Positions 3,401 through 39,329 of a stretch of DNA of 44,682 nucleotides are shown here, piece after piece; position 1 is the stretch's first letter; every line of letters starts with the position of its first letter. Location: contig JBNGIO010005753.1 of assembly GCA_049999805.1 (NCBI GenBank), positions 1-44,682 on the forward strand, written 5' to 3'. The notes beneath the pieces are model-generated. The model did no database searches. It saw only the letters and a program-made list of their open reading frames with translations, and was not told where the DNA came from. Origin of the DNA: Folioceros fuciformis. Taxonomy: Eukaryota. The position numbers were made by a program, and so were the translations under genes.

Positions 3401-3446
3401 CGCCAACTGAACTACTGCCCTTGATTCAGGTATGAGAACTCCTCAT
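409..3446 (-). pseudogene. Element A gag C-half, protease, integrase and partial RT, with many stops and frameshifts
   Basis: ORF fragments 3035-3406 (zinc knuckle), 2813-3013 (DSGAS), 2339-2590 (gag-pre-integrase WHxxLG..CxxC), 1952-2158 and 1232-1885 (rve and following SH3-like region), then RT motifs ([26 protein letters not shown]). Confidence 0.9.
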
Positions 3447-3722
3447 TGTAGGATCGCTAGAGGAGCTGCATGGTGAAGGAGGAGAGGAGGAGGCAAAGAG
3501 GAGGAGAAAGAGAGGTCACACTCTCACAATGAGTCTCTCATTGCAAGGGAGCTCAAGGGGGTATTTATACCCTCTAGAAGACCTCCCTAGGAAGCTTCAT
3601 AAGAAGCGCACAGGAAGCTGCGCACGAAGCTTCCTATAGATGAGCTTAAGCTAATCTAAACTAATGGTACTTAACTAAACACTAATCTTAGACTAAACAC
3701 ATTGGGCTTTATTAACCCTACA
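3447..3722 (-). repeat. 3' LTR of element B (276 bp)
   Basis: TGTAGG...CCTACA terminal inverted repeat; minus-strand TATAAATA box near 3562-3569; immediately follows the polypurine tract. Confidence 0.85.
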
Positions 3723-3735
3723 ACCTCCCACTTAC
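3723..3735 (-). promoter_or_regulatory. Polypurine tract of element B
   Basis: Minus-strand GTAAGTGGGAGGT directly before the TG of the LTR. Confidence 0.75.
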
Positions 3736-3764
3736 AGGCCAATTTACCTTCATAGGAGAGTGGT

Positions 3765-6700
3765 CTACCTCAAGCCCATGAGTGTCCGAGCTTGTGCGAA
3801 TTGCTCCGTAGACAGCCCCTTGGTAAGAACATCTGTAGGGTTCTGACTGGTGTGAACTTTGACAAGCTGTACCCTCTTGTCTTCCAACACCTCTCGAATG
3901 AAGTGATACTTCACTTCCACATGTTTGGTCTTCGCATGAAACATTGGATTCTTCACTAATTAGATAGCACTCTGGCTATCACAATGCAACACTGGCAGCT
4001 CAACCTTGATCCCCAAATCTCCCACTAAATGAGCAAGCCACATGGCTTCCTTCCACGCCTCAGTCGCTGCAACATACTCGGCCTCTGTGGTAAATAGCGT
4101 TATGCACGATTGCAAACGAGATCGCCATGAGACTGCCTCTCTAGTGCACATGAAGATATAACTTGATGTGGACCTCCTTTTATCCATATCCCCTACATAA
4201 TCAGCATCTGTATATCCCATGACAGATGCATCTTCACTACCAAAACATAAGCACAAAGCTTTCGTATCGTTCAAGTACCTGATAACTCCTTTCACTGCCT
4301 CCCAATGCTTCCTGCCAGGGTTTGACATAAACCTGCTAACCACTCCCACTGCAAAGGCAATGTCAGGACGTGTAGCAATCATTGCATACATCAAACTCCC
4401 TACAGCTAATGAGTACAGAACCTTCTCCATTTCAGCTCTGTCCTCCACAGAGCTTGGGCAATCCTTGCTCAAAAGTTTCAAATATGGAGGCAACGGAGTA
4501 CTTAATACCTTCCCCTTCTCCATGTTGAAATGTTGAAGCACCTTGTTAATGTATTCAGTCTGAGACAAGTAAAGCAAACGCTTCTGTCTGTCTCGACAAA
4601 TACGCATGCCAAGAATATGGCTTGCCTCTCCCAAGTCTATCATGTTAAAGCGAGCATTCAACTTTGACTTCAACGCTGAAATCTCATCACTATTAGTTCT
4701 AGCAATTAGCATATCATCCACATAGAAGACCAGAATGAGCAAGCTTCCATCCTTAGCTTGCTTCGTATAGAGGCAATGATCTTCCTCGCTACGCTTGAAG
4801 CCTTGAGAAAGCATAAATGAGTGGAACTTGTAATACCACTCCCTAGGTGCCTGCTTCAAACCATAAAGGCTCTTCTTTAACTTGCACACTAGACTCTCTT
4901 TGCCCTTCTCAATGAAACCCTCTAGTTGCTGCATGTATACCTCTTCCTGGAGATCACCATGCAGAAATGTTGACTTCACATCCATCTAGACAAGTTCCAT
5001 GTCGTGCCTCGTAACCAAACCAAGAACACATCATCGCAAGGTGGTCATTTTGATAACTAGTGAGAAAATCTCATCAAAGTCAATACCTTGTTGTTGCTTA
5101 AAACTCTTAGCAACCAATCGTGCCTTGTACTTGGGTTTGCCATAATGGGGTATGTCCTTCATCTTATACACCCATTTGCATGGCAACGCTTTCTTGCCCC
5201 TAGGCAACCGAACCCACTCCCAAGTTTGGTTCTTGTGGAGCGAATCCATCTGCAACTGCATCGCCTTCTCCCACTTGTCCTTGTTAGTCACTAACATGGC
5301 CTCTTGATAACAAGAGGGCTCCCCACAATCCGTCATCATGACATAATCAAGGGATGCAACATACCTGTCAAGAGGATGTGAAATCCTTCCTAACCTACGA
5401 AGCACTGGCGCCTCGATCGGAGCTGGTTGCACTCTCTCCTCTTCTACAAGTGGAGGAACTTGTTCCTACACATCACGACGTTCAACCTACGCGGGACGGT
5501 CAAGTCCATCTTCTTGGAAGACCACGTGTCGCACCTCCATAGTTGGAGTAGGCTTCTTGTGCATCTTGGTCTCATTGAAGAACATGTCATTGCTGTGAAC
5601 CATCCTCTTAGCCTCTGGATCCCATAGATGGTATCCCATCTCACCAGATTCACCATAGCCAAGAAAAATACATTTTCTTGACTTAGGAGCCAACTTGTCC
5701 CGAAACTCCTTCGGAACATGGTAGTATGCCTCACAGCCAAACACTCGTAGATGCTTGTAAGACGGATTCTTCTCAGACCACGTCTCCTCTGGAACCTGCT
5801 CATCCACAGCCCTATTAAGAGATCTGTTAATAAGATGCACTACAATAGCCACTGCTTCTGCCCAAAATCCGTTAGGCAATCTAGAGTTTGACAACAAACT
5901 ACGCATCCTCTCTTGGATTGTCCTGTTCATCCGTTCAACCACACCATTCTGGGGAGGAGTATACGGCGTAGTCAATTCTCTCTTGATTCCCTTGGAATCA
6001 CAGAATGACTGGAAAGCCTTGAAAACATACTCTCCCCCATTGTCTATCCTTAGACACTTCAATCGGAGGCCAGACTGATTCTCCACAAGGGTGATGAATT
6101 TATGAAACACTATCAGAACATCATCCTTTTTCCTCAAAGGATAAACCCACACCTTGTGTGAGAAATCATCAATGAAAGTGACAAAATAGGATGCACCGCC
6201 TAATGGTACAATGGGCATAGGTCTACAAACGTCACTGTGAACCAACTCAAGAGGTTTACTTTTGTGTTTACCTCTTGCTCCATGTGGTGACTTCGTCTGT
6301 TTCCCATACAAACAGTGCTCACACACGGAGAAATCGGAGAAGTCAAAAGCAGGGACGTAACCAAAACGAGATAAGATCTTCATTCCTTTTCGAGACATAT
6401 GTCCTAACCGACTATGCCACAAGGAAACACTTGGCTGTTTCATTACACAAATCACATGATCCTTGACAGTGGTTACCTGAAGTGAGTACAAAGTGCCACA
6501 CTTCGATCCACGAGCTAACACAAGAGAACCTTTGGAGATCTTCAAAGAACGATCTTCAAACCAACAATGGTAGCCACCGTCATCCAACTGCCCCGCGCTA
6601 ATCATGCTTTTGGTCAACTTCGGAACATGCCTAACATCCTTCAGTACGAATGAAGATCCATTGTCAAACTTCAGCAACGCTTGCAATCTCGCATGCGTAG

Positions 6701-7075
6701 TTATTTCCAAGCCGAACACATCCTTTCCTAGTAACATCATAAGTGCTAAACCACTCCCTACGCGGGATAACATGGAAAGATGCTCTAGAGTCAATTATCC
6801 AATTAGAGAATAAGTGACTCTTCGCGGCTGTCAGTTGTGCGGAATCAAAGGAAGAAGAGATAAGAACATCTCCATCATCAACAGAGTTCACCTCGTCACG
6901 CTTGACACTCGGACTTGCCTTGTTGTCGCTTTGCTTCTTCTCCTTTCCTTTGTCCTTCTTGAACTTCTCGCAGTCCCTTCTGATGTGACCCTTCTTGTGA
7001 CAATGGTAACACTCAACATTGTTTCGACTACGAGACTTACTACGGGAAAGACTTCGCTCCTTGTACTTCCCCTTT
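3765..7075 (-). pseudogene. Element B gag C-terminus and pol (PR, IN, RT, RNase H), interrupted by stops and frameshifts
   Basis: WIIDSRASFH, LELVHSDVC, LRIDNGGEY, PQNGVVER, CKWVYK, YVDDML, ATRPDIAFAV, YTDADY, TEAEYVA, HAKTKHVEVKYHFIRE. Confidence 0.92.
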
Positions 7076-7154
7076 GAAGTACAAGGAGATAGCCAAACTA
7101 TTTCTTGTACTTCCCCTCGGCCAGCTAGCCGAGGGTGTCCCCTGGCTAGCTGGC
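7057..7154. other. Deletion junction with templated fold-back filler between B gag and A gag
   Basis: 7057-7069 and 7076-7088 are a perfect 13-bp inverted pair; 7060-7073 equals 7104-7117 (14-bp direct copy); 7120-7130 and 7144-7154 are a perfect 11-bp inverted pair. Confidence 0.75.
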
Positions 7155-7618
7155 TAAGGGGGCATGAATCTAGCAACATGACTCTCGATGGAGTCGGTCT
7201 CTTTCATGCGTAGGTTCTGAAAGTGCAAAGTTGCAGCGACCTCAGTAACCATGTCCTTGGACTCATATGTTTCAAACAGAAGCGACCAGGCCTCCTGTGA
7301 AGACTGTGTCAACTTGATATGAGGTATCATTTCCTGTGATAAAGAAGCGACTAGTATTGTTCTTGCTTTTCAGTCCTTGGTAGTCCAATCATGCTCATCC
7401 TTCGATGTCCATTTGTGTATTGTACCCCCAGGGGTGGGAGGACCTGAGGGCTGGCCTGCGATTTTCTTGGGTACGGACCTGTCAACTTTATCCATGAGCA
7501 GCTTCCCCTCTAGGATGCATCACACCTTGAAGCCCTAGGCATCGTAGTCTGTTGAGGTCAGGCAGTCCTTTTCCTCAAGCCTGTCCGACCCTAAGTCTGG
7601 GTTCCTGAAAGCAGACAT
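7143..7618 (-). pseudogene. Element A gag N-half (copia gag N-terminus and UBN2-type region)
   Basis: Manual translation MSAFRNPDLG...TDYDA*GFKV*CILEGKLLMDKVD...DWTTKD*KARTILVASL...EAWSLLFETYESK...LRMKETDSIESHVARF..SQLA, which joins GVLIPESRAVVQLAVSL at 3446. Confidence 0.85.
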
Positions 7619-7642: not shown

Positions 7643-7951
7643 TCAGTTTTTGGGAGGGTGGAGAGTGAGTTGATCTCTCAAGTTGTGTATTAATTCCTTC
7701 TACTTTGTGATTGTCCATTGATCTGAGGTATGTTGTCGCTCCAGATGATCAATGCTAGAGTAAATAACATCGATGCAAGAGGAGAACTCCAGCATTGTGC
7801 TCTTGATGCTTAGAATGGAATCAAGGATGACTTGGTGCTTCGTAAAGAACTCGAGGTGAGATCTGGGCCTATGAGTACATAGGCCGCTTAAGGAGCACAG
7901 CCATTTGAAAGACTCCACTGATGCAACATTATTTGGCACAGGAGCATGAAG
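7643..7951 (-). pseudogene. Element A upstream extra ORF (ORF0), 3' part
   Basis: In frame with 14739-14576 once C and one TSD copy are removed; one internal TAG at 7700-7702; ends about 25 nt before the gag ATG. Confidence 0.55.
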
Positions 7952-8101
7952 TGTTGAGGGTTTTATAGTTAAACCCAACCTAGTTTAAGTTACTTAGGTT
8001 TATCAACCTTAACTCAAGAGACACAAGTTTTGTTCATATACTCTCTTTTGTTTTATCAATTCATTGTATTGTTTGTACAACAAGCTTCCGCTAGTTTAAC
8101 A
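7952..8101 (+). repeat. 5' LTR of element C
   Basis: TGTTGAGGG...TTTAACA; 148/150 identical to 14426-14575. Confidence 0.97.
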
Positions 8102-8113
8102 TGGTATCAGAGC
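8102..8113 (+). promoter_or_regulatory. Primer binding site (initiator Met tRNA) of element C
   Basis: TGGTATCAGAGC immediately after the LTR. Confidence 0.95.
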
Positions 8114-8172
8114 ATATCATTTATGACCACTAGATCAGATACAGCCTATCTACTTAAGCACACGATGTACAT

Positions 8173-8826
8173 ATGTCAACTCTGACATTTGCACTATCAT
8201 GTGCCGGAGCAAATAGTTTAAATCTGCATTCTAGAGTTTGTGTTTGTAGTTTTGTCATACGAAATTCCTCAAGGAAAAATGTTTATGCTATTCTACAAAT
8301 GATCCTGAAGGTTGATTGCTATGGCACGAAGGGGCTCCAAGCGCCCTTATGGGTTTCCTCTCAGCTGGGAAACCACTTGAACAAGGGCTTTCAATCTCGG
8401 TCTCAGAGAAGACCTCCTCCATCAGCTGGCTGGATCGAAGGCCCTACTTGCTTGTGTCACTGCAATCACAACAACACACAAAGAAGTTTCAGACAAACTT
8501 GTTATTCCGAAACTCCAGAACCAAGAGCTTCAAAACCAACTCACTTGAGTTTATCAAATATTGATATGAGTTTCCATGTTCTGGAAGCTAGGATCTCGAC
8601 ATTCGAGGGCCACTTTTTGCAGAACTTGGCAAATGTGGAAGAGCAAAGTCTTGCTCAACAGATATCTCAGAAGCGCTATTTAAGGCATCTTTCTAAGCAG
8701 ATCTCGAAGCTTCAAGACTCTTTCATCAATGCAATTTCTGTGAGCGGCTTGACTGCAAGTAATCAAAGTGAAACTTCAGGAGAATTGGGAGCTGGAACTA
8801 ATCTGGCAGTGCAGATTCCTAGTTGA
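8173..8826 (+). CDS. Element C upstream extra ORF (ORF0), coiled-coil-like protein of unknown function; possibly a frameshifted ORF that really starts at ATG 8321
   Basis: 217-codon open frame between the PBS and gag with a heptad-like C-half (LEARISTFE...LANVEEQ...LRHLSKQISKLQDSF). The alternative frame from 8321 reads MARRGSKRPY...LQNQELQNQL with one TGA and joins near 8545. Confidence 0.5.
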   Translation: MSTLTFALSCAGANSLNLHSRVCVCSFVIRNSSRKNVYAILQMILKVDCYGTKGLQAPLWVSSQLGNHLNKGFQSRSQRRPPPSAGWIEGPTCLCHCNHNNTQRSFRQTCYSETPEPRASKPTHLSLSNIDMSFHVLEARISTFEGHFLQNLANVEEQSLAQQISQKRYLRHLSKQISKLQDSFINAISVSGLTASNQSETSGELGAGTNLAVQIPS

Positions 8827-9142
8827 GTTCAGGATTGCATCATTCCTCTCTGAATTCCGGTCACAGATCTTAACAGGCGCGTGAGGGAGTGTTTCCGCCT
8901 CTTTGTGGCGACAGCTTGGCAAAGGATACAGAAAGCTGTGATCATAGGCATTGCCTCCTCGCTGATCCTCCAACTCAACGTGTCTGCTTCAGCCTACATG
9001 TCGATTCAGAGTTAGTTGCACCCTTTCCTACTCCATTTTAGGGTCAGCTGAATCCCAACCGTCATGAAAACCCAATTAACGTTTCGTTTTTAGGGTTTCA
9101 GGTTTACTAACCATGGTTATAGACGTCGTTTCCTGTTAGAGC

Positions 9143-12100
9143 ATGTCTGCTGAGGGCATTGACTCTGATCTTGCTTTCCCCCACTCTCGATCAGCAACTG
9201 TAAGTAGTGTTGACTCTGCAGAGGTGTTACACAGGTGATGTTGATAAGTGGGTGAAAGGAAATAAAGTCGCTTTTGCTATCCTTCTTTCTGGACTGGATG
9301 AAACCACAGTGATAGAGGTGGAGTCCTTGCCAACTGCTGCAGAAGTTTGGTCCCAGCTTAAGGATACCTATCAAGTACAAAATATCCTAACCTTGGTAGC
9401 AGCGAGAAATGATTTCTTTCAACTAAAACTTTGTGATGGAGAAGCAGTTGGACCTCATGTCGTCAAGTTTCGATACATGAGGTCGCAGTTGGCGAATCTG
9501 GGAAGTACTATGTCGGAGGTGGATGCTGTTGCTCAACTTCTATCCAGCCTACCTGCAAACTTCCAGAATTTCATCTCCAGTCAGAACGCAGCCCTGCAAG
9601 AATCATATGTTGCTATTGCTGCTAAGAAACCACCCCTTGTCACTTTCAATAGTGTTGTTGGTGCCCTCCTGCAAGAGGAGCAAAGTAGACACAAATCAGG
9701 GACCTCCTCTCGCGTCCGAGGAGAGAAGGTGCTTTATGCTGCACAAGCCAAAACCTATGGTCGAGGGAAAGCGAAAGGCAAGAAGAGTTCGAACTCACCT
9801 CCATCAAGTACCTCGTCCAGCACCAAACGGCATGGAAAGTGTAATTGGTGCCAAATCCCAGGTCACTGGGAACGCGACTGTTGGAAGAAGAAAGTAGGGG
9901 AACCCAAGAAGGATCCTAGATCTGAGGCCCATGTGACTTCCAAGGACAGCAAAGGATCTGGACAACATCAGCCTAAGAGTAGCAACACAGTCCTGACTGT
10001 GTGTCTCACTTCGTCCAAGGAGACCTCCTCAACGTGGTTTCTTGAGTCGGGTGCTATTGCTCATGTGTGCAATAACACAGAGCTCTTCTCCACCTTCCAC
10101 GTGAAGCGGGGGAAAACACCAGAGTTAGTATATGTAGGAGATTCTTGTGGAGTGGAGGTAAAAGGCAGTGGGACAGTCAAAATACCTCTTGCAGCTGGCA
10201 AGTCCTTGTGTTTGCATGATGTCTTGTATGTGCCCACTATGTCTAAGAATTTGTTGTCAATTAGGGCTGTAGCTCAAAATCAGCAGTTAGGCTTTCGCTT
10301 TGAGGACAGGAAGTGCTATTTATATCATCCTTCTGATCCTGAATCACATGTAGCGAAGGCAATTCTTGTTAATGACCTTTACCAACTAGTCACAACAGCT
10401 AAGGTGCATGCTAGAGCACTTACATCTTCTTATCACGCTCAAGCTAACCTGTGGCATGCTAAACTTGGTCATGTGAACAAAGCTAAGCTGGATGTTATGT
10501 CTACCTCTGATTGTTATAGGGAAAGTCTTGTGTTAAACATCTCGCTCCCTGCAGTTCTTGCATCTTGTCAAAATAGAAGGAGCTTCCGTTTAAGAACAAA
10601 ACTCCTAATCGGGCTAGGGCAGTTCTGGAGTTAATCCATGCAGGCATTGCAGGGAAGTTACCTGTTAAGTCACTCGGCGGTGTTGAGTATTATCTTACTC
10701 TCACGGATAACTACTCAAGGTATATGTGGACTTCTCCTCTGAAGCTAAAAAGTGAAGTGTTTGATACAATTGCAGCTTGGATCCCTATGGTGCAACGCCA
10801 AACTGTCTGCTTAGTCAAATGCTTCAGAACAGATAACGAAGGAGAATTCACAGGGCACAAGTATGATGACCTGTTTTAGCAGTTTGGCATTGTGAGGCAA
10901 CTGTTGGTGCCCTACACGCAACAACAAAACGAAGTGGCTGACAGGAAAAATCAAACGCTTATGGGGATGACCAGGAGCATGTTGTCTTGGGCTGGTTTAC
11001 CTAAACAGTTTTGGGCAGAGGCAATTGTGACAGCTACGTATATCCTGAATAGAGTTGTTACCTCTGCATTGCCTGGTCGCACTCCCTATGAAGCCCTTTG
11101 GGACAGAAAACCTAGTCTGCTTCACTTGCGTGTCTTTGGATCACTAGCTTTTGCCTATATTCCAGAAGCCAAGCGCAGTAAGTTAGACAACAGGTCGCTT
11201 CACCTTATCTTCTTGGGCTACTCTGAGGAATCAAAGGCATACAAACTGTATGACAAGAATACTTTTAAGATTGTACTTGCTAGGAGCGTTATTGCTAGTG
11301 AGCTTACTCATTCCCCTGGACCTCTTGATCATGATCTTTCTGTTGGGCACAGTTCTAACTTTGCAGGCTCTTCTCTGTCTGAAGAAGAAACTTCAGAACA
11401 AGCAGTCCTTGATGCTGCTCCTCACCAGTATCCTCAATCAGATGGAGAGGGCCCAACCCATGAAGACTTGTTTGCAGCTGATCAACATCTGGAAGTTGAA
11501 CCACCGCCAACAATAGGTGATGACATACCTCCTGCATATGACGTGGGGGAATTTGCAGATGATCAGGCCTCCATACATGAAGATGCAAACGATGTGGAAT
11601 CTCTTTCCAGCACTGCGGATGATGGACAGTCTGTCCCTTCAATTCATTCTAAAGAACCTGAGCCTAAACCTGCACCAGTTGCACCTGTTGCTAATCATCA
11701 GCCAAGGTACTCATTCAGGGAAAGACGCACTCGTGAGAATTGGGAAGAACCTCCTTACCAGGCAGTGGATTTTCGTAGACAGTCTATACAGGTCTCTGAT
11801 CTACATGTGCCAGACGTCAGACCTGACCCTCAGACTTATGAAGAGGCTATCAATGGGCCTGATGGTGATAAATGGAAAGCTTCCATCGATGATGAGTACC
11901 AGTCTTTGATAAAAAATGCCACCTGGGAATTGGTTGATCTTCCTCTTGACAGAAAGCCTATTAGTTGCAAATGGGTATTCAAGACTAAGTTAAAAGCAGA
12001 TGGTACTGCAGCTAGGTACAAATCACGCTTAGTTGCACGAGGTTTCAGTCAGATTCCAGGGTTAGACTATGGTGATACCTTTTCTCCAGTAGTGAAGCCT

Positions 12101-13404
12101 CCATCTATTCCAATCCTTCTTGCTCTTGTAGCCGAGTTCGACCTGGAAGTTCAGCAAATGGATGTTTGTACAACGTTTCTTCATGGTGAGCTCAAAGAGA
12201 TTTTATATATGGAGCAGCCTGAAGGGTTCATTGACAAAAAATGGGTTAAAAAGGTCTGTAAACTCCTCAAAACGATCTATGGTCTAAAGCAGTCACCTAG
12301 GGCTTGGTACAGGAGGATTATGAAGTACCTGAAGAAGTTAGGCTTTCTACAATCTCCTACTGACAGTAATGTTTTCCTTCTAGTTGCTGGTGCCCTCTTT
12401 GTAATTCTAGCTTTGTACGTGGATGACTGTGTTCTGTTAAGTAACAGCACAGTGCAGCTGGAAAAAGTTAACGACATGCTTCGTCAAGAGTTTGAAATGA
12501 CAGATCAAGGCGACTTACAATTTTGTCTCGGCATCCAAATCCTTCGCAGTAGGGCAGCTGGGACTATCACCCTCCACCAGACTAAGTACCTGAAGGAGAT
12601 CCTTAAGAGATTTAACTTACAGGATGCTCGTCTATTGGCCACTCCCTCAGCAGTGGGGGAAAAGCTGACAGCAGAGCAGTCTCCTCAGACCAAGCAGGAT
12701 TTTGCGGACATGTGTGCTATCCCATATGCCGAGGCAGTGGGTTGTCTTATCTTCTTAGCCAATTGGACGCGCCTTGATATAAGCTACTCAGTTAGTATGG
12801 TCTCCAAGTTTCTTAAACAGCTTGGACTTGCTCATTGGGCAGCCATTACGAGAATCTACCGCTATCTAAAGGGCACAGTTACTTATGGCTTACAGTACTC
12901 AACGAGTGGCAACAGATGCTTGGAACTCACCTCTTACGCAGATGGTGATTGGGCCTCTGATGCAGACACTAGGAAGAGCCTATCGGCTTACTGTTTTCTT
13001 CTGTCATCTGGATTAGTTAGTTGGAGTTGCAAAAAGCAAGCTTCCTTGGCTCTCTCCTCCACTGAGCGGAATACAAGGCCTTAACCGATGCCTGTAAGGA
13101 GGCAGAGTGGGGGAGGCAGTTCTTGGAGTTTGTACAGCAAAAACAACAAGGCCCAACAAGGTTATACTGTGATAATATGAGTGCAATTGCTCTCGTGGCT
13201 AACCCTAGGTTTCACGCTCGTACTAAACACATTGAGCTATATCATCACTACATTAGGGACGTAGCCGAGAGGGGTGTAGTAAAAGTTGAGTATGTCAGCA
13301 CGCATGATAACACAACAGACATATTCACAAAGGGACTGTCCAAGTCTAAGCACTTTCAGCACCTTGCAGCCTTAGGTCTGCGTGAGTTTGTGTATCAACA
13401 ATAA
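9143..13404 (+). pseudogene. Element C gag-pol polyprotein with disabling lesions
   Basis: UBN2-type gag, CNWCQIPGHWERDC knuckle, WFLESGAIAH protease, integrase, RT (CKWVFKTK, YGLKQSPRAW, LYVDD), RNase H (YADGDWA, ARTKHIE). Frameshifts near 9230, 10540 and 13065; TAG stops near 10573 and 10877. The start is approximate. Confidence 0.93.
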
Positions 13405-13520
13405 CATGAAGGGCGTTGTCTAAGCAGAAAGGACCTAGCTCTAGCCTATTAGCTGATTACACTCTGTGCACACACTTAGGTGGAACCTTGTGTACAGTGT
13501 ACTCTTCTCTTCCGTCTTCA

Positions 13521-14295
13521 TTAATTTTTGGGCTCATATCCATCCTGTCCAGATACACAGATGAGTGTTGTTAGGTTTGTCCAGTCTTTCTGTTCAATGG
13601 ATGAAGCGTCAAGTGCATTAAATCGTGGACAGGTGACAACCGAAAACAGGTAGGGAATTTACCTGATAAAGCTTCTTCCCACAGAGAGGGCATAGTTTGC
13701 TTCTGTAGGCACATATGCTGCAGTCCCTATTCTTCTCACGTTCAATCTTCTTCTGGTCACCGGGATCAATCTGGGCAGCTAGCTTAGCTATCAGGGCAGC
13801 CTGCTGCCGAGATACTTCCTCCCGTTTCAGGTCTAGGGGCTTCTCCACTTCTCCCAAGGTTGCCATCGTGGTTTTCATATGGTTCGACAAACTCTGGATA
13901 GTGGGGGTTGCATCCCATGACCAGTTCCTACGACGAGGCTCACTATTTGCCTCGTCAGTGCTATTAGGGTTTGTGTCTATCATGGTGATACTGGCAACTG
14001 AGGGAGATAAGGATACAGAGGACTCGAGCTCCACGAAAGGGACCCAATTCAGATGAGTAGGGCACAGAGCAGGTGGCGGCGCATCCTCGGGAGGAATCGC
14101 TTCAGGGGCAGGAGCCTGGATGGCTCGCCTGGTTGTCGATCTTCCTCGCGCTGGACGGTCTCCAGCTCCGCTAGCTCTCTTCATCTGGTGTGACCTCGAG
14201 CTATTGGCGCGACCTCTCTCTTCGCTTGGTGCTGCTCCTGAGCGTGTCTTCATCTTTTTTGTGCTGTGTGGCTCTACCGCAAAGAAAGCAAGCAT
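13521..14295 (-). CDS. Antisense accessory gene of element C: disordered N-terminus, coiled coil and CxxC-x6-CxxC; predicted exons 14295-13663 and 13589-13521
   Basis: 225-codon uninterrupted antisense ORF between the pol stop and the PPT. CAG|GTAAAT donor at 13662 and CTTGAC..TTGAACAG| acceptor at 13590 (73-nt, phase 0) give ...DCSICAYRSKLCPLCGKKLYQKDWTNL...*. Confidence 0.65.
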
Positions 14296-14416
14296 AGCAT
14301 AAGAAGGCCACTATCACGAGTTCCATGTGCGATGAAGTAGTGAGTAGAGTGGGTGGAGCATAATGCCCCTACTTGATTGTACTCTATAGGAAGATCCTGT
14401 TAACCAAGTTAGGTTT

Positions 14417-14425
14417 AAGTGGGGG
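14417..14425 (+). promoter_or_regulatory. Polypurine tract of element C
   Basis: AAGTGGGGG directly before the 3' LTR. Confidence 0.85.
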
Positions 14426-14575
14426 TGTTGAGGGTTTTATAGTTAAACCCAACCTGGTTTAAGTTACTTAGGTTTATCAACCTTAATTCAAGAGACACAA
14501 GTTTTGTTCATATACTCTCTTTTGTTTTATCAATTCATTGTATTGTTTGTACAACAAGCTTCCGCTAGTTTAACA
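14426..14575 (+). repeat. 3' LTR of element C
   Basis: Matches 7952-8101; followed by TSD TGAAG. Confidence 0.97.
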
Positions 14576-14739
14576 TGAAGACTCAAAAACGTGCTGAGTA
14601 AGTGCGCCCTTTCCTCCCTCTATGCATGGGATGCCTCCTTTTTTGAAGTAGAGGTCCTCAAATCTAGTCTCAAGGTGTGGGTGCACCTTACTTTCTGCAA
14701 ATTTTGGCCAAATTGCCTACAAGTGTGCCTGCGAGGCAT
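14576..14739 (-). pseudogene. Element A upstream extra ORF (ORF0), 5' part
   Basis: ATG at 14739: MPRRHTCRQFGQNLQKVRCTHTLRLDLRTSTSKKEASHA*REERAHLLSTFLSL, continuing in frame at 7946. Confidence 0.5.
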
Positions 14740-14819
14740 GTTGCCAAAATGATGGCATATTCTCTCAAATTAGTGGAGCAGATTGCATCTTCGACTAAGT
14801 GTGTATTAGGCCTAAGGTT

Positions 14820-14831
14820 GCTCAGATACCA
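14820..14831 (-). promoter_or_regulatory. Primer binding site (initiator Met tRNA, 1 mismatch) of element A
   Basis: Minus-strand ...GTGAACA|TGGTATCTGAGC. Confidence 0.85.
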
Positions 14832-15000
14832 TGTTCACATTTGACCATGATTGCTGCAATGGATTGATGCTTAAGTGTAGGCTAATTGACGAGAACAAAG
14901 ACACGTAAGTCAAAACAAGCGTATTGGAGAAGGTAGAAGGTGTGTGTTCATGAAGCCGACTATAAATGGTTATAATATTTTGGCAACTGACAGAATAACA
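14832..15000 (-). repeat. 5' LTR of element A (outer boundary tentative)
   Basis: Plus-strand TGTT at 14832 adjacent to the PBS; nearest plausible AACA end at 15000; no partner LTR in the window. Confidence 0.55.
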
Positions 15001-17086
15001 ACTAGCCGTAACCTAATTATAAAATGTTTAAATAAGCCGGAGTTTATTTTCAACTTAACTTAACCAAAATTGTCTCACTAGTTAATAGGATGCATGTCAA
15101 CTGTATTGGATGATGCTTTCGATGTATGAATGTAGGAGTCAAGTACATAGTGAGCTACACTACATTAGCAACATGGTGAAACCTCAGAGAGTGACACTTC
15201 AAAGAACACATATATGAGAAGAAGTTGGGTTCTCATAATGTTGAAGGTATGAAATTGTTGTTTGTCCACTTAAGTTCTTCATGGAATTGCATAGCTCTCT
15301 TCGTCAACCTGAAATTGTTCCCACTTTGTAGCATATGTGCATTGGGTATTGCCTTGATAGGCTTGTAAGGGACACAACTACTGGAACTAACCTTACTTTA
15401 GAGTTTTAAGAAGCATTGTTAGAATTGTTGTGAGAGTACAAACAAGTTCAATTGTGACATAGATCATTTTCAAACTTCATTGTTGCTGCAATTCTAATCA
15501 AAAGAGTGCTTTAAAGCACAGATTGGACATGCTGCTATAAACTCACATCTCGTGTTATACAAATGACAGAAGTTCATGGACTATATGCTTGTGAACTAGG
15601 GTGCACTTGGAGGCTTAAGCAAGTACTATGACTAAAACGTATAAGAAGAGGGACGATCAACTTTCTCATGTCTAATATTGGTGGCACATAGTGCAATGGC
15701 ATCAAACCTTCTGGCTATTGGTTCAGATTATGCATGATGCACCATAACATGGTAATGAGCAAGAACATAGAAAGGTACATGTTGTAGCCGTGGAGAGCTG
15801 TAGGGACATGTGTACTGACCTTAATGACCATCGATTTCCCCTTTGCAAGCACTATCAACATGATTATGGAATGGTTGCACTAGCCTTGCATACCCATGCA
15901 TTCGATTTTGTGGTTTAGTTTGAGATTTGTTTGTGTGTATAAGACTTGAGTTAAATAAGGCCATTTCAAGTAAACAAAGGGTCGTACCATCGATATCGCT
16001 CAAAGTTGTAGATGGACTAAAGAAGTGGAGTAGGAAAAGAAGATAAGGTTAATTGAGGACAGGGTAACGAGAGTACATGGAACATATCTCAAGGTACATG
16101 AGATGTACTCTAAATAGAGAGTATGACGTCATGATTATAGGGCCAACGACACTTAATAGTCTTAACATTTGATAGTAGTGTAAGTTGACATACACCTATG
16201 TCACCTTAGGCACATTTAAGTTTCACTCTCTTAGGAGAGTAGAAGTATACCTGGCAAAACTTCATACCCACGTGAGCAACATTGGGCATTAACAGAATAC
16301 TCCCTATGCCCTCTCACCTTATGCAAAAACTCGTCATACTCCCAAGCTCTTTGCCCAGTGGATGTGCCTTGTATGTTGCCATACATAGCAATATAACTAA
16401 TCAACCATAGAGGTGCTCCCACCTCTTTGAAGATAGGAGGATAGTGTCTTCACGAGTCTTGGAGTTGCATTCTTGGCTTCTCGTCAATGGTGCACTAGTC
16501 TAGAAAACAGACCACCTTACCAATAGTAGGCTTGTTCTTGTATGGGGCTTGTTGTTGGGAAAATAGGTTAAGAAGAGAGGATGGTGGTGCAATGGATTTA
16601 AAAGGACGTGAAGCACCTAAGGCCCTTCTATTGCTATATTCTTGGCTTCCTTAACCTTCACCTACAATTCTATCTTTTATACTCTCATGGTTTACCTTCT
16701 CTCTTAAGTCTGAGAAGAGCTTCATCTGTCTCTATGCCTCGTCAATTGCTCTTACCTATCAAAGCATTGTAGAAACCCCAAATGCGATATATCAATGAGG
16801 TCAGACAGGAGGGATGGCTTTTCCGATTGCAAGTGCTTTTTTCTTTATTTGACAAATATTTTTTATGTCAGATATTTATATTTTAAGATATATATAGTTA
16901 TCTAAATTTATTTTTAATATTTTATGGTATATAATATATATTATTGATAAAAATACTATCTAATTTTTATTATAGTAGCTTAATAAAAACAAATAAGTAA
17001 AAACAATCACTATTTCACAACTCTTGATAATTATTACTTATGGTACAAAAGAATGGAGAAGGAACCACCATTGTGAATTCTGGTAC

Positions 17087-17186
17087 NNNNNNNNNNNNNN
17101 NNNNNNNNNNNNNNNNNNNNNNNNNNNNNNNNNNNNNNNNNNNNNNNNNNNNNNNNNNNNNNNNNNNNNNNNNNNNNNNNNNNNNN
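17087..17186. other. Assembly gap (100 N; true size unknown)
   Basis: Run of exactly 100 N. Confidence 0.99.
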
Positions 17187-18404
17187 AAATATATATAAGA
17201 TTGTCATCTCTACATTACTAAAAGCTACAAAATTTATCCAAAATTTAACCATTAAATAACAAGTAGAATTTTCTTTAAACTGCAATATAAAAAAAAACTT
17301 TACATCATGGTTTTGGGCCATGACGCGGATGATGTAAGATAATAAAGGGCTTTCGGCAAGATGTTATAACCCTTCTTATTTCCCTTTGGATCTCCCTCAA
17401 TGATGGTTTTCTTTTCAACACCAGGTACTCACTATATATATGGACGCATTGGGCCAAGATGAGCAAAGCTTTCTAATCTTCAACCACAACACATTAGTGA
17501 TAGAAGGTAGGTTTGGGATGAGGATTTATAGAGACTAGCTTCTCTTAGCTTTTGGCCATTTTATGGTTTGTTCTCTTTTGATGTGCCGTACATGGAATTT
17601 TCCATCTCTTCTTTTTTGAAGTCTTCATTTGCTTAGAAGATGTGCTTATGTTATGTAACACAATCTCATGTGCTACAAGTCTAGATTGATTTCTCTCATT
17701 AGGACAATGTACAAGACATACGGCATAAAAGACTTTTCCCTATCACATAAGACTTAGGGACTTCTCTATGTGAAATACAACACACCATTCTCCTCAAGGG
17801 AGACGATAAGAGTGCCTCATGATAAGGTGGTGAAGAAGAAGAATTCTATCAGATTCCACCAAGGACGAATTTCCATTCCATTATGGGGCTTGAACCCATG
17901 TTCAAAATTTGATGGCCTTGTAGACCACGGGGACCACCCTCCAAGCTTTAGATGATATTAAAACCCAATTCAATTCTGCATGACCTATTGGATGTTGGAA
18001 CCCTTCCTTTGAGACACACAACTTCGTGATATGGGTCCCATAAAAGAAGCAAAGCTGCTTCCCTTCCACTATTGTTAGCGTGTCCAGAAGACAGAAGTCC
18101 AACAACACAACATCAAAACCCAAAAAGAACAACTAATAAATAAAATAAAAGGCAAATATTTTCTCGGATGACTACTGTTAAAGATTTCGTTGTAAGCAGG
18201 CTCTAGATGTATATTCGTGAACAAGACGTCAAACGCGGGTACGAGCTGGGATATCCCTGACTATTGGAGTCGACCTAGATTCTGAAGGAAAAACTTGAGT
18301 AAGGCTGACCCGCACGGCGGACAAGTCGGCGCAGCTGCAAATCGCGGCTAACTGTGCCCACCATGTTTATGCAGTTGCGGTGATGATTTTGTAGCAATCA
18401 TTCG

Positions 18405-21400
18405 ATGGCTACCTCGCTGAGCGCGCAGTTGCAAGTGTTGGCCCCTACCCATGGCCAGCCAACCAAGCAGCGGAACGGGACCCGTCCCTCGCTGTTTTTC
18501 GATCCCGTTCAGGCTGCTGACACTGACTTACAGACAATCTTCTCTATTGCTCTAGAAGGTCAGAGCACTCGGTTGTGAATGCTCGCAGTTTGATTTGCAA
18601 CGGCCCTTTCTCACACCCTTGTTGTGGCGCAGCTCTGGAGAAATTAGTAGAATATGATGGTCAGTTTGAGGGCTATCGAAAGACTCTGTTCAGCCCTCAA
18701 AGTTGTTACACTGACAGAGAAGTTCAGGGAAGGGAGTTCAATTTGAAGCTGGACAAGTCTATATCAGAGTACCTCCGATTGCTGTCAGGCTACTTGATGC
18801 TTGAACCAGCTCCGCGGACTTTGGAGTATCTTATCAGGCGTTACAAGTGTGTACCGTCTCTAACCTGAATTCTTCCTTGTCCAGTGGTGTTTGTTTTATG
18901 TTTGCTGGCTGGTTGTGGAACTAACACGACTATTTGGGACTTTTGTTGGGTGACTGAAGTGTCCACGTTCGTAATGTGGATCAAGTAATGGCTTGCGTTC
19001 TCCCCTTTCATGAGACGCGTCTTTTTGTGGAAACCGTCAAGCTGCTGGAGATTCAGTGAGTGTTAATGTTGCAATCTTGGAGAAGAGACTTTGGGAGTGG
19101 CACATATATGTTCTGATGGTCTCATGAATGTTCGGCACATGCTTGCTGTTTGCATCCTTGCAGGGGCAGTAAGTGGAGTTTTTTAGCGGGGGTGCAGAGT
19201 AGTGGAGCACCACCTCCTCGGCAAGCTCTTGTGGAGCGGTGCTCTAAGGACCTGGCTTTATTGGATTCAGTTGTTGACGTGGTATGCTTCACGCCTCTTT
19301 TCACTTCCCCGTGCACCTGGGAGGATGTGACTTGGATGCATCTGAACCTATGTTGTTACATTCTTGCCTGCACATCTGCAGGCTATTCTTGAGTCTCATT
19401 CAGCCAAGTCTCGGAGTTTAATCACCTTCAGTATTGTCTTCATCACTGAAATCTTGGTGGCAGTGCCCATCATAACTTCGGAATTGGTGAATCGAATTGT
19501 GCAACTCCTCTTGCACAGCTTCAAAGCGGGTGTGCACGAGGACTTCCAGGTCTGTTCATGATGTTTTGCCATGGAATTTGGCTAATACGGTTATGACCTG
19601 TAGAGACCTTGGATGTCAGCTGCAAGAGTAGCAGGGAAGGTTTAATCTTGAAGGTCATGTCAATGCCTCGCAGATTGGAGCCATGATGATAATGTGTACC
19701 CTTGCGAGCAAATCTAGTCTGTCACCAGATCTGGTCACCACCCTTTTCGAGTTGATTGCGAAAAGGATACAGATAAAGAAGGATGTAGGGAGCTCTCTAC
19801 TTCAGCTTTCCATCAGGGTGTTAGTTGTATTCACTCAGGTGACGTCCTCCTTCAATTCTTTTCTTGTGTCCGTCTGTTGGAACTGAGGGATAGGCCTGCA
19901 GAGTGGTGGTGATTTCAACTCATGGGCAGCCTTGTTCAGTTCTTTGTTCCATGTCAGATTCGTGAACTGAGAGTGTTCCTCCTTGCAGACACAAGCTATA
20001 ACGCAACTACCTCTCAAGGCCTTCAAGTTTATCGTCAAAGTGGAGTACGCACCACTATTACTGTTTTCAGTCACTGTCACACTTCATTCCTGTGTGTTCG
20101 CAATGGATACTGTATTCTGACTGTGGATCTCTGTGTGTTGACATCAGAGGTTTGCCAGCTACTCTGGTTGAACTTGGACAGAGTTTCGAAATTAGAACAT
20201 TCACATCGCTGTTGCTCAACTCTTTAGTGGACCATTGGTGAGGGCCTTGCTAAGATTCGGACTGAAGTCTACTGGTTTGGTGCATGGGAATTCAGCTGTT
20301 CTCTCTTTGCCTCGTCACCGTGTTGACATTGTGTATGCACGTTTTGTCTAAAGCATGGCACATGAACATTATGAAAATTTGCTCTTGGAAGTAATTAAAG
20401 CGGTTCCTATTGAAGATGAAGTTGTCTCATTAGTATCCCGGCTAGTGGGCCGAATTTCTGAGGAGCAGGCAATGGCTGATTCTGGAACTGCTGAAGACCT
20501 GGGACCTGGTCAACGGAAAGCAAGTTCGTTTTCATATCCTGACTCCATCTGTTTTGTTTCCATGATATTGGAAGATTTTGATCTGATCCGCTATGTATAG
20601 GCATGCAGCGTGGCTTGCATGAAGAACCTGCCGAATATTCTGCATAGTGAAATGCGTGGACATTTGTTGCTGCAGAGAGTGTGGTCACAAGACTGCTCCA
20701 GACTATCGATCATCAGTATCCCAAGCAGATGGATACAGCTGTTAGCGCAGTTCTACAACAGTATCAGGAAAAGGTCAGTGTAGTTTACCACTGTTCTGTT
20801 TCTCTGTTGAAGTCGGGTACTGACAGTGAGCTTGCTCAGAAGGGGAATACATCTTCAGTTTTTTACTTTCTGCGGGAAGTTCTTCATGGAAGTTTGCACG
20901 CCCCACTAGCAGAGACGCAAACAAGTTTGCTGCTGTCCCTTGAGCATCCTAATGTGAGTTTTTGTTTGAGTGTTAGGTAATTACAGATGGTTGCCGTTCA
21001 AAATGCTTGTATTGAATCTCTTGTTTCACAGGCACGGATACGACAGGCTGCTGTGGAAAACTTGTCACATGTAGTAGCGAAAAACGCAGAGTCTGAGGAC
21101 GTGGAGGTAATTGCATTCTTACTCCGCTTTGCTTGTTTCTGAATTGCACATAGTTTGGTGTTGTTGAGCATTAGCTCTCAGACCAGACAAAAGTGGCTAC
21201 AGTACTTCGTGTATGAATGAGGAATCTTCAAGGGCAAGTTTGCGTTTTTCAGCAGCTGTTTATGTGTCTTGTTTGAACTGCAGATGTCAGCAGTTGTTCG
21301 GGATGTGCTCTTAAAAAGAATTCTGGATGATGACTTCGGTGTGACATACGCTGTACTTAACATCAAGGATTTGGTTAAGTTTCTGCTGCCCCAAAATTCT

Positions 21401-24400
21401 TTTGAGGCTCTAGGAGCATTGCTGAACAAATGTAAGGCTTTTTATAGAGAGAGATGATTGCATATGTTTTCCAAAATTTTCGCGTAATTCATGTTGGCCT
21501 CCATCGTTTCTGACCTCTGAAACTTCAGGCAGGAAAAATATGGACGGAAAAACAAAGTCTGTCGCGAGAATTGCCATTGAATTGGCTGGTGACGTGGCTA
21601 AGCGGAATCCAGATTACTTGGAGGGTGTCGCCCTTATGCTTTTGAATTATTTACTCATTCTGCCCAAGGTTCTGCATTCCACTCCCCATGAGTTCCGTGC
21701 TCTGACAGCTGATGTTTTCGTGCAACAGAAGATGTGCTGATGTGTCGTTTTGTGCAATGGTATGGCATTCTTAACTAAACTAGCAGATAAAGATGAAACT
21801 GTACTTGATGGACTAGTGCAGACTTGGAGGCTACACTGGATCGCATTCACAGTTTGTCAGCAGTTGTCATATCCTTTGTTCAATGGTTTAGCAAGTATCA
21901 ATGCTCCACCTCCAGAAGCTTATGATGATGGCATGAGCGCTAAGACTAGAAAGGTAGATCACGATCCATATTGCACTCATGAAGGTCCTAGATTCATAGT
22001 GATTACAGCTTCAATAGTTTTTCTGTGGTAACTGATACAATTTCAATGGTTCTCACTGAAAATGTGCTCTATGCGAATCAGCAAAAGCGGAGGGCTTGGC
22101 TGTCTTCTATCAACAGTGAGATTGTTCGGGCTGTTTCAACTTCTTTTTTGACCGACGTGTCTCTATTCCTACCACTTCTGGCTAAATCTATCAAGGAGGA
22201 GCACTCAAGGGGACTAGTGCTGCTTGTTCTGCTTCAGTCTTTTTCTACCGAAAGGAGTGGTATACTTCAGCACTTTGCTGGAAGTAGTTTAGCGACTGTC
22301 TTCGTCCTGCGATTTGCAGTCTGATTTGCCTTGGCCTTTTTTTAGGCGGAATGAGGGCAGCATTGGAGGATTATTTCTGTGTTGTAAAGCAGGAATGGGA
22401 AGCTTTCATTTTGAACAACCATATTGATAAACTTCAAATTCCTCAGGTATTTACTCTCTGATGCTCGGTACAGGTGAAATTATTTGTGTTATGTCTGCTT
22501 TGTCCTCGTCCAACCATCTCATAGCCTGATCATTGGCAGATAGACTACCAGAATTGGGATTTGGGAGAATCTTCCGAGTTCTATTGCAATTTGGAGACAA
22601 CACCACATAGAGCGTATTATGAGCTGCTGCTTCGTATCTTGTACAAGCTGACGTTTCATGCTTTTGGAAATAGCGTGCTTGAACTCAAGGTAGTCTAAAT
22701 GTGGATTGATCTGGTAAATCCTGCTTGGATCAGTGATGGAGCCTTACCCTGTGGTTGTGGTTCTAGAATCAAAAGTCAGATGATGCACAGAGCATCACCG
22801 TCGACCTCTTTGTGCTCCTTGCGGGTTCATCATCTCCTGAAGCTTTTGAGCCCCATATGTCTCTTGTCACAAACGAGCTCTCGGGAAGGCTGTTCAGCTT
22901 CTTGTCCGGATTCTTCGCACAGGATGGTATGTTCATCATTTATACGTTCTTTGTTAAGGCATAACTCGCTCGAGAGATAGAAATGTGGATCTGTTATGTG
23001 ATCTACCAGGTCACTGTGTGGGTGGCTTAAAATTGGCTGAATTGATTTGTGGTTGGTGGCAGGTTCTTCGGTTCCGGCATTGGTGCAAACTCGAGCACTT
23101 GACCTTTTTGCTTCGTCTGTCACGAGAACGTCTACGATGCCATGTTGTGAGTCTGAAGTGCAAGAAAGGTTGGAAGGTACTGACGTACTGATGGCTTGGC
23201 CTGCGCTCCTGGTAGCTCTAACGAGCAATCGGAAGGTAATCATGGTGGCAGCATGTTGTTTCTGGTTCTTTAGTTTAAACTTTTTTCTTTGATGCTGAAA
23301 GGTTATTTCATTTGCTACTTGTGCAGGCGGTTCGTAAGGGCGCACTTGAGAGTCTCAAGCAGTTACATTCATGGGCTGGAAATGAGGGAAAGCATTTGGC
23401 ACGCGGACTAGGTACAAGTTACTACGAAGGTTTCTTGTTAACCAGTTTTATAATACAAAAGGCTACGATTTTTACTTTTCTGACTGTCTCCCCTCCTAGG
23501 CAATCAGCAAGGAGTTCCAAAATTATCAGCGAAGCTTTTCGTCCGTTTTCTGGGAGTGTTGATAGCTCAAGAAAAACTGTTCCTGGCCGATGGAACCCAT
23601 CTCACAGCCTTCTTCGTTCACTCTCTCAGCGACGCACCAAGGGATTCCCTGACGATTCCTCCCACTCCACTGGTGGAAAGGTATTCATTGCTCATCCGAA
23701 ATTGTATGCTGATCTGAAAGTCTTGCGAACGACTGGATCTGGTATGCAAATTACGAAATTGGGGATGCACTCCGACTGACATGGAATTATGGTTTGCGAA
23801 GGTTTGACAACAAATCTCAGAAGGCCATTGTCATGTATCTAGCAGCTTCTGCGCAGCTCATGAGTTCCCATCCTCAGGTATAGCAGCTTTCCCTTTTTTG
23901 GGATTCTGTGTGGTCCAGCTGGACTTTGCTGCTGCCTTGGTCATGTTTGTTGCTTGCTTAAGTAAGGTCTCTATCTGACTTTCTGATGTGATGCAGAGAG
24001 TGCTGCTGTCATCCCTCTTAGATGTGGGACATAATGTGGAACTTGCTGTCGCAACTGGAGGTCTGCTTTCACAGTTATTACAAAAACGGCGACGGGGTCA
24101 TCTGAGTTACAGCACTTCAGTTGGTCAAAAGACAACAAATGCAGATCTACAACTTATCACTCTTCTCCTTCGTGTATGACGTCATCCACATGACTGCCTT
24201 GCTGAATATTTGCAACTATGGTTATATCGGTGCCTCTATGCTAACACTTCGTCTCTCTTAACCGTAGGTGTATACACCGCATGTGGCTGCTGCAGTGAGT
24301 TCAGCGTCGGGCAAAGAGGACTATCCAACCCTTGCTGGGTTTTTCGAGGCTGTGACAGTAGGTGTCCGACCTTTTGAAGAGGATGGCTGGCACTCGAATG

Positions 24401-38208: not shown

Positions 38209-39329
38209 CTCCTATGCCATTGGACCCACAACATTTGTCTAAGCTTTTTCAACACAAGTGACAAATCATTGGACACTACAGCTCAGTGGATGATCAAAAC
38301 TATGCATACTTTTTTTCAAACACTTCATAATGAACCATGTGGGAACTTGTTTCCCTAGTGAGACCTAGTGTTTCAATATGTGCTATACACCAGAAAGTTG
38401 GACATGAGATTTCAAAAGTGTCTTTCTATGTCGCTTCAAATATTATTGTGTTATTGATGAACATAAGGATGGAGAAAAAAAGCGTGTGGAAACTGCTAGC
38501 AAGAGGTGTTATAGGTACCCTACAAGCAACTGGTTGTGCATAATATAGTGGGCCTTGACTTGCATGTAGCTAGTAATAGGGTTGTAGCATGAGTTCTCTA
38601 TGTGCACTAGCACCTTATCCATTCCATTTGAGCCGCTCATAATCCACATAAAATGAACAAATAAACCAATCAAACAAGTCAAGTTTAGTGTTCATATGAT
38701 GATGTACATAGTATGGCCAGCCTACATCATTATAGATTTTTTCTATAAAGAAAGGGTTATAGTGACAAACCAACCTCAAATGTGAGAATTAAAGTAAGTC
38801 ATTCATTTGACCTACATGAAAAAAATCACTAAAATTAGAAAAAGCTATAAGAAGATGTGGTCGAATTAGGCCTGATGTGCGCAACATGTTACTTTAAGAA
38901 GTAAACTTAGAGCCAACCTAAATTAGAAAGTGCCAAGAGTAAAAAAGGAAGAAAACAAAAGAAATTGATTATATATTTATGGCATCAACCAATAAAGAAT
39001 TAGATCTTGAATTCTAATAATACTAATTCTGGTTAAGAATTCTAGTTCTAGATAAGAATTAGATCCTCACTTCTAATAATACAGATTTGAAACCTACATC
39101 AGTAATAGCAATTTCTAAGATAGTAAAACCTTTGACAATATATATAGGGATGAAGTCTAGGTCTTACGAGAACTCATGAAATGTATTGAGAGATCCTTAA
39201 GCTTTACTGCTTTCTCTCAAGCTCTCTTGCTCTTCTTGATTCTACATATGTAAGATTGAGTAGAGAGAAAGAAACAAGCACTTTCGTTTCTTGTAATTTT
39301 GGAGTGTGTACAATATACGAATTCATCAA

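Follow-up and report, generated by a model that had tools for sequence, protein, structure and literature searches.

The 44,682-nt Folioceros fuciformis contig JBNGIO010005753.1 (hereafter, the window) carries a decayed Ty1/copia retrotransposon in which the spacer between pol and the 3′ long terminal repeat (LTR) holds a long antisense open reading frame (ORF) ending in a compact four-cysteine motif. Antisense ORFs between pol and the 3′ LTR, termed aORF-3R, are established in some LTR retrotransposons, including Grande (gene23), RIRE2, Retand, PvRetro13, and the fungal Boty (PMC7264820), and the ORF described here has the same position and orientation. The explanation we favor, tentatively and with somewhat less than even confidence, is that it represents an antisense additional ORF of the aORF-3R kind, restricted to its lineage and carried by a low-copy copia element, and that it is still coding or was so recently.

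A long antisense ORF between pol and the 3′ LTR

Pol ends with a stop at 13402-13404 in its last frame, and an unusually long spacer of 1,021 bp follows before the 3′ LTR. A first-pass annotation of this DNA had placed a 225-codon antisense ORF between the pol stop (13404) and the polypurine tract (PPT; AAGTGGGGG), and the ORF map bears this out: on the minus strand, the frame occupies 13618-14295, with 225 codons from ATG to stop and 230 from stop to stop, and both peptides quoted in the annotation, LDLKREEVSRQQAALIAKLAAQI and DCSICAYRSKLCPLCGKKLYQ, are found in its translation. When 13405-14425 was shuffled with dinucleotide composition preserved, the mean longest ORF was 98 codons and only 1 of 5000 shuffles reached 230 codons. 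This length is difficult to reconcile with an alternative that we consider unlikely, namely that the ORF is a young or decaying frame without function in a GC-richer, low-complexity spacer, that its cysteine knuckle is fortuitous, and that any effect is exerted through antisense RNA (feedback by double-stranded or small interfering RNA). On the plus strand, a 113-aa ORF at 13715-14053 has no meaningful Pfam match.

A second in-frame ATG is found at 14253. It is the more likely start of the antisense ORF, because the only 1-bp deletion among the differences listed from the source DNA (see below), at 14255 in an A6 run just upstream of this ATG, falls between the two ATGs and spares the frame from 14253. 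A minus-strand TATAAAA within the 3′ LTR is a possible antisense promoter element (Table 1).

The first-pass annotation also argued from the fact that the ORF is intact although gag-pol of the same copy has ‘at least five lesions’. Four lesions are clear: the frame shifts at about 10478-10547 and again at about 13066, and it is interrupted by in-frame stops at 10574 and 10877. A fifth, a stop at 9201 ahead of gag profile position 29, is possible. At 4-5 lesions per 4.2 kb, about 0.6-0.8 would be expected in the 0.68 kb of the ORF; because the probability of finding none is near 0.5, the intactness of the ORF is not significant and the argument falls away.

The carrier spans 7952-14575 on the plus strand of the window, with 150-bp LTRs and a TGAAG target site duplication (TSD). 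Its LTR pair, TSD, primer-binding site (PBS), PPT, domain order, and RVT_2-type reverse transcriptase (RT) are those of a Ty1/copia element. We take the PBS, TGGTATCAGAGC, to be complementary to the 3′ end of initiator tRNA-Met, as in copia elements. Pfam matches follow the copia order, that is, Retrotran_gag_2, Pol_BBD, gag_pre-integrs, SH3_retrovirus, and RVT_2 (E = 5e-71), then the RNase H end, and the pol region, aligned across three frames, is collinear with the intact polyproteins of three metagenome loci.

The interval between the PBS and gag contains a further ORF (ORF0) of 222 codons from stop to stop, a length that 0 of 3000 shuffles of 8102-9203 attained. No Pfam family scored over threshold for ORF0, and by its length it is a plausible third gene of the element. 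Contigs of the DNA run X1 cover ORF0 at a depth of 9-13, about equal to that of the unique flank.

Table 1. Positions of the copia element, its antisense ORF, and the neighboring host gene in the window.
Feature	Position	Strand	Basis or remark
TSD TGAAG, left copy	7947-7951		5′ flank ends ...CATGAAG
5′ LTR, 150 bp, TG...CA	7952-8101	+	148/150 identical to 3′ LTR; mismatches at 7982 and 8013
PBS TGGTATCAGAGC	8102-8113	+	Sequence directly after 5′ LTR
ORF0, 217 aa, upstream of gag, without family match	8173-8826	+	ORF list, Pfam
Degenerate gag-pol (gag, protease-type barrel, integrase, RT, RNase H), three frames	9204-13404	+	Pfam matches, frame map
Candidate exon 2, 22 codons (KDWTNL...), and stop at 13521-13523	13521-13589	-	Sequence
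Candidate phase-0 intron, 73 nt, GTAAAT...CTTGAC...AACAG	13590-13662	-	Sequence and signal test
Antisense ORF exon 1, 211 codons from ATG 14295	13663-14295	-	Sequence, ORF list
CX2CX6CX2C-GKK zinc-knuckle motif, CRIPT-like, aa 192-208	13672-13722	-	Pfam PF10235, 7dvq_0 alignment
PPT AAGTGGGGG	14417-14425	+	Purine tract adjoining 3′ LTR
3′ LTR, 150 bp, TG...CA	14426-14575	+	Paired with 5′ LTR
TATAAAA within 3′ LTR	14435-14441	-	Read directly; 140 and 182 nt upstream of the two ATGs
TSD TGAAG, right copy	14576-14580		3′ flank starts TGAAGAC
Host HEATR1/UTP10 gene (HEAT_HEATR1 and BP28CT domains)	18773-29192	+	Homology

The cysteine motif resembles part of CRIPT

Translated from ATG 14253 without splicing, the product has 211 aa and an isoelectric point (pI) of 9.25; Arg, Ser, Pro, and Ala abound in its first 110 residues (pI about 10). 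The four-cysteine motif that the first-pass annotation had seen is present, as C192, C195, C202, and C205 followed by GKK. The description of this C-terminus as ‘RING-like’ did not survive closer comparison, as there are four clustered cysteines rather than eight, no RING family appears in Pfam to E 10, and RING2 chains align over just 26 residues (E = 2.1-4.5). The likeness to RING or C3HC4 fingers consists of CxxC pairs near the C-terminus, and a RING finger was rejected for want of eight Cys/His ligands in the cross-brace C3HC4 spacing.

Instead, the motif matches CRIPT (PF10235): the score is 25.6 bits (E = 2e-5) with the entire ORF as query and 27.6 bits (E = 4.7e-6) when only the final 70 residues are used, relative to a curated gathering cut-off of 25.5 bits. 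CRIPT is the sole Pfam family to E 10 for the C-terminal 70 aa, and profile positions 52-84 of 90 are covered. The best chain in the PDB was human CRIPT from the activated minor spliceosome (7dvq_0, E = 0.13, residues 67-93), which has C..CAY....C..CGKK in common with the ORF; the spacing C-x2-C-A-Y-[KR]-x2-[IL]-C-x-[ML]-C-G-K-K is identical and aligns to CRIPT residues 73-89. Judged from these alignments, the likeness to CRIPT is real at the level of the motif, and an exact CX2CX6CX2C with AY and GKK that beats the curated cut-off is not readily expected of a functionless ORF.

CRIPT itself is a protein of ~100 aa with four CxxC pairs, and it carries a C-terminal PDZ-binding tail. The antisense product, in contrast, has 211-233 aa with an unrelated 190-residue N-terminus, and of the four pairs it holds only the final two, corresponding to C73/C76 and C83/C86. 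It ends in ...HLSTI if unspliced and in ...YEPKN if spliced, the profile match to CRIPT stopping at position 84. With two of four CxxC pairs, no N-terminal CxxC, and the wrong size, the ORF was rejected as a member of the CRIPT family. The zinc centers of CRIPT are interleaved, one formed by C3/C6/C83/C86 and the other by C58/C61/C73/C76 (PMC10676203). Because just half of each center is present in the ORF, a CRIPT-like fold is out of its reach; the knuckle cannot rebuild the two interleaved centers and, if it binds metal, would most likely hold a single zinc. Its 14-residue span is the same as that of the retroviral CCHC knuckle.

A motif of this kind could also have reached the element as a passenger. 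In such a case, an inverted piece of a host gene (exon and intron) would have been captured, either from a lineage-specific source or from the 3′ part of CRIPT with fusion to unrelated sequence, and the frame would be open through its coding history in the source and not through use by the element. We regard this origin as possible, if on the unlikely side. The presence of only the last two CxxC pairs of CRIPT, each from a different zinc center (PMC10676203), gives the motif the look of a truncated domain, as a passenger would have; yet identity to human CRIPT amounts to just 9/17 in the core motif with nothing outside it, and transduced sequences are usually sense-oriented according to PMC7264820.

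Roughly two versions of the element are seen in the source DNA

The DNA runs X1 and X2 contain 0.82 and 0.78, respectively, of the words of the spacer, and their contigs were aligned to the window at a likeness of at least 80%. Depth in X1 was 18-23 over 13420-14202; the unique flank (14725-15507) had about 12.5, and the pol bin of lowest conservation had 20. These depths suggest roughly two versions of the carrier family, both with the spacer. Conserved RT and integrase bins reached depths of 100-175, from partial matches to other copia families. In the unique flank, both runs show a 15-bp deletion variant at 14984, and, because this indel is seen at about half depth, the sequenced sample likely contains two haplotypes. 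Contigs bridge from pol into the ORF (13144-13576 and 13347-13814) and from the ORF into the LTR (14002-14447), placing the versions seen inside the element; that the variant contigs seen are in element context counts against a passenger.

The differences listed are the best-supported subset, with 1641 more in existence, and provide no estimate of the ratio of nonsynonymous to synonymous substitution rates. Those within the ORF include a 6-bp in-frame insertion after 13949 and the substitutions P110T, P178S, I194V, R198K, and S199R. The last three are conservative changes inside the knuckle, and none of the differences listed hits a cysteine. The frame from ATG 14253 is kept in the second version, and an insertion variant that preserves the frame is a point against a functionless ORF. 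We consider that the antisense ORF is probably coding sequence now, or was until recently.

Two further runs were compared with the window. None of the runs listed as containing the spacer was an RNA run. Run X4, guessed to be RNA, contributed one 37-nt piece (11108-11144) and none over the ORF, and has no bearing on expression. Run X3, from the same sample as X1 and X2, has 629 C>T and 308 G>A differences over 8200-16000, a large excess, and therefore looks like a bisulfite- or enzymatically converted library.

A candidate intron at the end of the antisense ORF

The first-pass annotation had proposed a 73-nt phase-0 intron at the end of the ORF, and its signals were found as described: a CAG/GTAAAT donor (exon end at 13663), a CTTGAC (YTRAY) branch-like site, and, ~19 nt further on, an AACAG/A acceptor (exon 2 from 13589). 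Exon 1 up to the donor comprises 633 nt, or 211 codons, hence phase 0. If unspliced, the frame continues for 14 codons past the donor to a stop at 13618-13620. Both forms keep the cysteine motif, and the antisense ORF is independent of splicing. Exon 2 alone (22 aa) has no meaningful Pfam match.

Counting both strands, the 44.7-kb window contains AGGTAA at 20 sites, and five of these sites, the candidate donor among them, are also followed by a YAG at 50-150 nt, with a YTRAY branch and at least 20 open codons. By a rough estimate, such a signal set would fall within the final 15 codons of a given ORF by chance in ~1% of cases; because the search was post hoc, we regard the antisense intron as plausible only. 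A full set of splice signals exactly at the end of the ORF is nonetheless unexpected of a functionless frame. A retained intron would also fit a genomic origin and thus a passenger.

The first-pass annotation had likened the intron to a 74-nt first intron of host UTP10. This comparison was not upheld: the interval concerned, 18851-18924 between the first two HEATR1 homology blocks, is without an AG end. Four HEATR1 introns placed by homology to the protein P0003 measure about 100-103, 103, 106, and 147 nt and have GT..CAG ends. This makes the host introns short, the candidate at 73 nt being slightly under the four placed in HEATR1. Among full-length proteins in the collection, the nearest relative of HEATR1/UTP10 itself shares 40% identity over the ORF that was tested.

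If the explanation we favor holds, the antisense ORF would have a promoter of its own, located at the inner edge of the 3′ LTR or close to it, and would be transcribed opposite to gag-pol, and an intron on the antisense strand, not being spliceable from the sense genomic RNA, would be copied at each retrotransposition. The product of ~211-233 aa would have a basic N-terminus rich in Arg, Ser, Pro, and Ala (pI about 10) and two or three helices, together with a C-terminal CX2CX6CX2C with GKK, the knuckle resembling the last two CxxC pairs of CRIPT, a spliceosomal and microtubule-associated protein. It would most likely serve as a small accessory factor that binds nucleic acids or proteins. No result supports the anti-silencing, targeting, or self-regulatory role suggested in the first-pass annotation. 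The ORF, its motif, the splice-like signals, the anatomy of the carrier, and a second version with the frame kept are observed directly; that the ORF is transcribed and spliced, that its product binds zinc, and that it has any function are what we infer here. It is more doubtful still that the element carries a spliced antisense gene for a single-knuckle basic protein descended from CRIPT, acting on element RNA or on host silencing or splicing, and that it would be, with ORF0, a three-gene copia; we consider this quite improbable.

Composition, fold, and the search for relatives

A number of results weigh against an antisense ORF maintained by the element. GC content at codon positions 1-3 is flat (0.54/0.53/0.52), whereas all control ORFs have a higher value at position 1 than at position 2. 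In-frame codon log-odds are -0.02 with the transposable element (TE) codon table and -0.09 with the host table. Control ORFs score +0.06 to +0.18 (five from TEs) and -0.07 to +0.12 (six from the host); most controls lie at +0.04 to +0.18, with one host ORF at -0.07. With the TE table, the true frame of the antisense ORF is the best-scoring one, yet it remains below zero. The flat GC profile, the weak log-odds, and the disordered Arg/Ser/Pro/Ala-rich N-terminal half are all features that a functionless ORF would have.

A single-sequence AlphaFold2 model of the ORF is of low confidence (mean predicted local distance difference test score, pLDDT, 43.4; predicted template modeling score, pTM, 0.20), which is again in keeping with absence of function. 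Its best part (pLDDT 63-67) consists of helices at aa 133-149, 158-174, and 178-188 (225-residue numbering). The ‘coiled-coil’ stretch of the first-pass annotation overlaps these modeled helices, for which the sole basis is this low-confidence model (pLDDT 43). To these points are added the presence of only half of the CRIPT domain, as a fragment would show, and the substitutions listed above: all five are nonsynonymous, with no sign of purifying selection, a pattern expected of a passenger and of a functionless ORF alike. Moreover, no more than about two copies of the family exist at identities of 80% and above, too few to show presence of the ORF in most copies. Such a very low copy number would suit a passenger, as transduced aORFs occur in one or few copies (PMC7264820).

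Searches for relatives likewise weigh on this side, and their outcome, an orphan in every search made, is one that a functionless ORF would produce. In a word-indexed protein search with the antisense ORF, 0 of 623 word-sharing candidates scored. When aa 170-225 were compared with proteins of 30-122 aa, a range that includes the length of CRIPT, none shared three 5-residue words; together with the low identity to human CRIPT, this makes a recent copy or capture of a CRIPT gene unlikely and so speaks against a passenger from that source. An exhaustive phmmer search of 1.84 billion cluster representatives gave no homologue, and that the other 180 residues match none of these representatives is a further point against a captured host gene. 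The sole phmmer match, P0001, was rejected as the 1519-aa translation of a roughly 100-aa tandem repeat, aligned to the Pro-rich aa 62-99 only, in 14 stretches. With the ORF as query, neither metagenome nor viral contigs yielded a confirmed relative, and a protein atlas queried with the whole ORF and with aa 150-225 returned no usable match.

A metagenome scan with the RT-RNase H region recovered 80 distantly related copia loci, none above 46% identity. Against these loci, tblastn of the antisense ORF gave a best E of 0.98 and motif regular expressions found nothing; matches of 12-15 residues (E = 3.4-8.9), which fall in the sense pol frame of the loci, were rejected as chance. The longest antisense ORF in the pol-LTR spacer of the 32 of the 80 loci with an LTR pair was 139 codons, compared with 230 here, in a survey that is crude (approximate pol ends, several duplicate loci, and some ‘LTRs’ that are contig-end repeats). 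Homologous ORFs in other species, a hallmark of aORF-3R, were thus not found, in collections that may lack the Folioceros lineage.

Other features of the window

Further copia fragments lie on the minus strand at 1232-7203. Their integrase and RT pieces (RVT_2, rve, SH3_retrovirus, and gag_pre-integrs) are spread over several frames, suggesting that two or more additional elements, degenerate or nested, are present; none of these fragments contains anything like the antisense ORF. Since nested and fragmented copia pieces are common in this part of the window, the ORF could conceivably have been supplied by the remnant of a mobile element nested in the spacer. We hold this to be very improbable: the ORF is not bracketed by terminal inverted or direct repeats, the sole inverted pair in or beside it being 15 nt at 87%, no transposase, gag, or other mobile-element family matches it, and the 1,021-bp spacer has no match elsewhere in the window.

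A 100-N assembly gap (17087-17186) lies between the carrier and HEATR1, and GC content in 16001-18000 is 0.35. Downstream, a 366-codon open frame on the plus strand (39297-40397) contains a PLATZ transcription-factor domain (E = 4e-9), which is indicative of a host from the green lineage, and a 96-nt direct repeat is found at 42366-42461 and 43183-43278, its copies 95% identical and 817 nt apart.

Comparison with known antisense genes

With the aORF-3R described in PMC7264820 and PMC11963269, the ORF has in common its position, its antisense orientation, a basic product without clear homologues, and the need for its own promoter. The cases named there are described mainly for Ty3/gypsy elements of the Tat/Retand type, with spacers of 3-6.6 kb, and occur in most copies and in several species (PMC7264820, PMC11963269); in Retand, for example, 97% of clusters have an antisense ORF with a TRP28 domain (PMC11963269). 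The carrier described here differs in being a copia element whose spacer measures 1 kb and which is present in about two copies; no relatives were found, and the ORF has no TRP28 or SMC match in Pfam. The word ‘intron’ is absent from PMC7264820 and PMC11963269, and a spliced aORF-3R is not described there. No antisense ORF that is CRIPT-like or spliced was found for any copia element in our literature search, supplementary element catalogues being outside that search.

Among complex retroviruses, spliced antisense genes are represented by HBZ, a bZIP protein of human T-cell leukemia virus type 1 (HTLV-1), and by APH-2 of HTLV-2. Neither has any sequence relation to the antisense ORF, whose promoter and splicing are candidates only. 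The likeness is one of arrangement, as both viral genes lie near the 3′ LTR and have their promoter in or near it (PMC7264820, PMC11963269).

The present evidence does not separate a maintained gene from a passenger or a functionless ORF. Antisense non-coding transcripts of retrotransposons are documented (PMC7264820), which lends some support to an ORF without function, and if the ORF is either a passenger or young and functionless, it would be an ordinary by-product of retrotransposon evolution. The functions of the known aORF-3R products are not known according to PMC7264820. If, on the other hand, the ORF is a maintained gene, the range of antisense accessory genes would widen beyond gypsy elements of the Tat/Retand type to take in a copia element from outside the flowering plants, and this would be the first such gene with a recognizable metal-binding motif and a natural antisense intron. 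Were the spliced antisense gene real, it would be a retrotransposon counterpart of the antisense accessory genes of retroviruses. Through its metal-binding motif, a maintained gene of this kind would make the role of aORF-3R proteins, long open, approachable.

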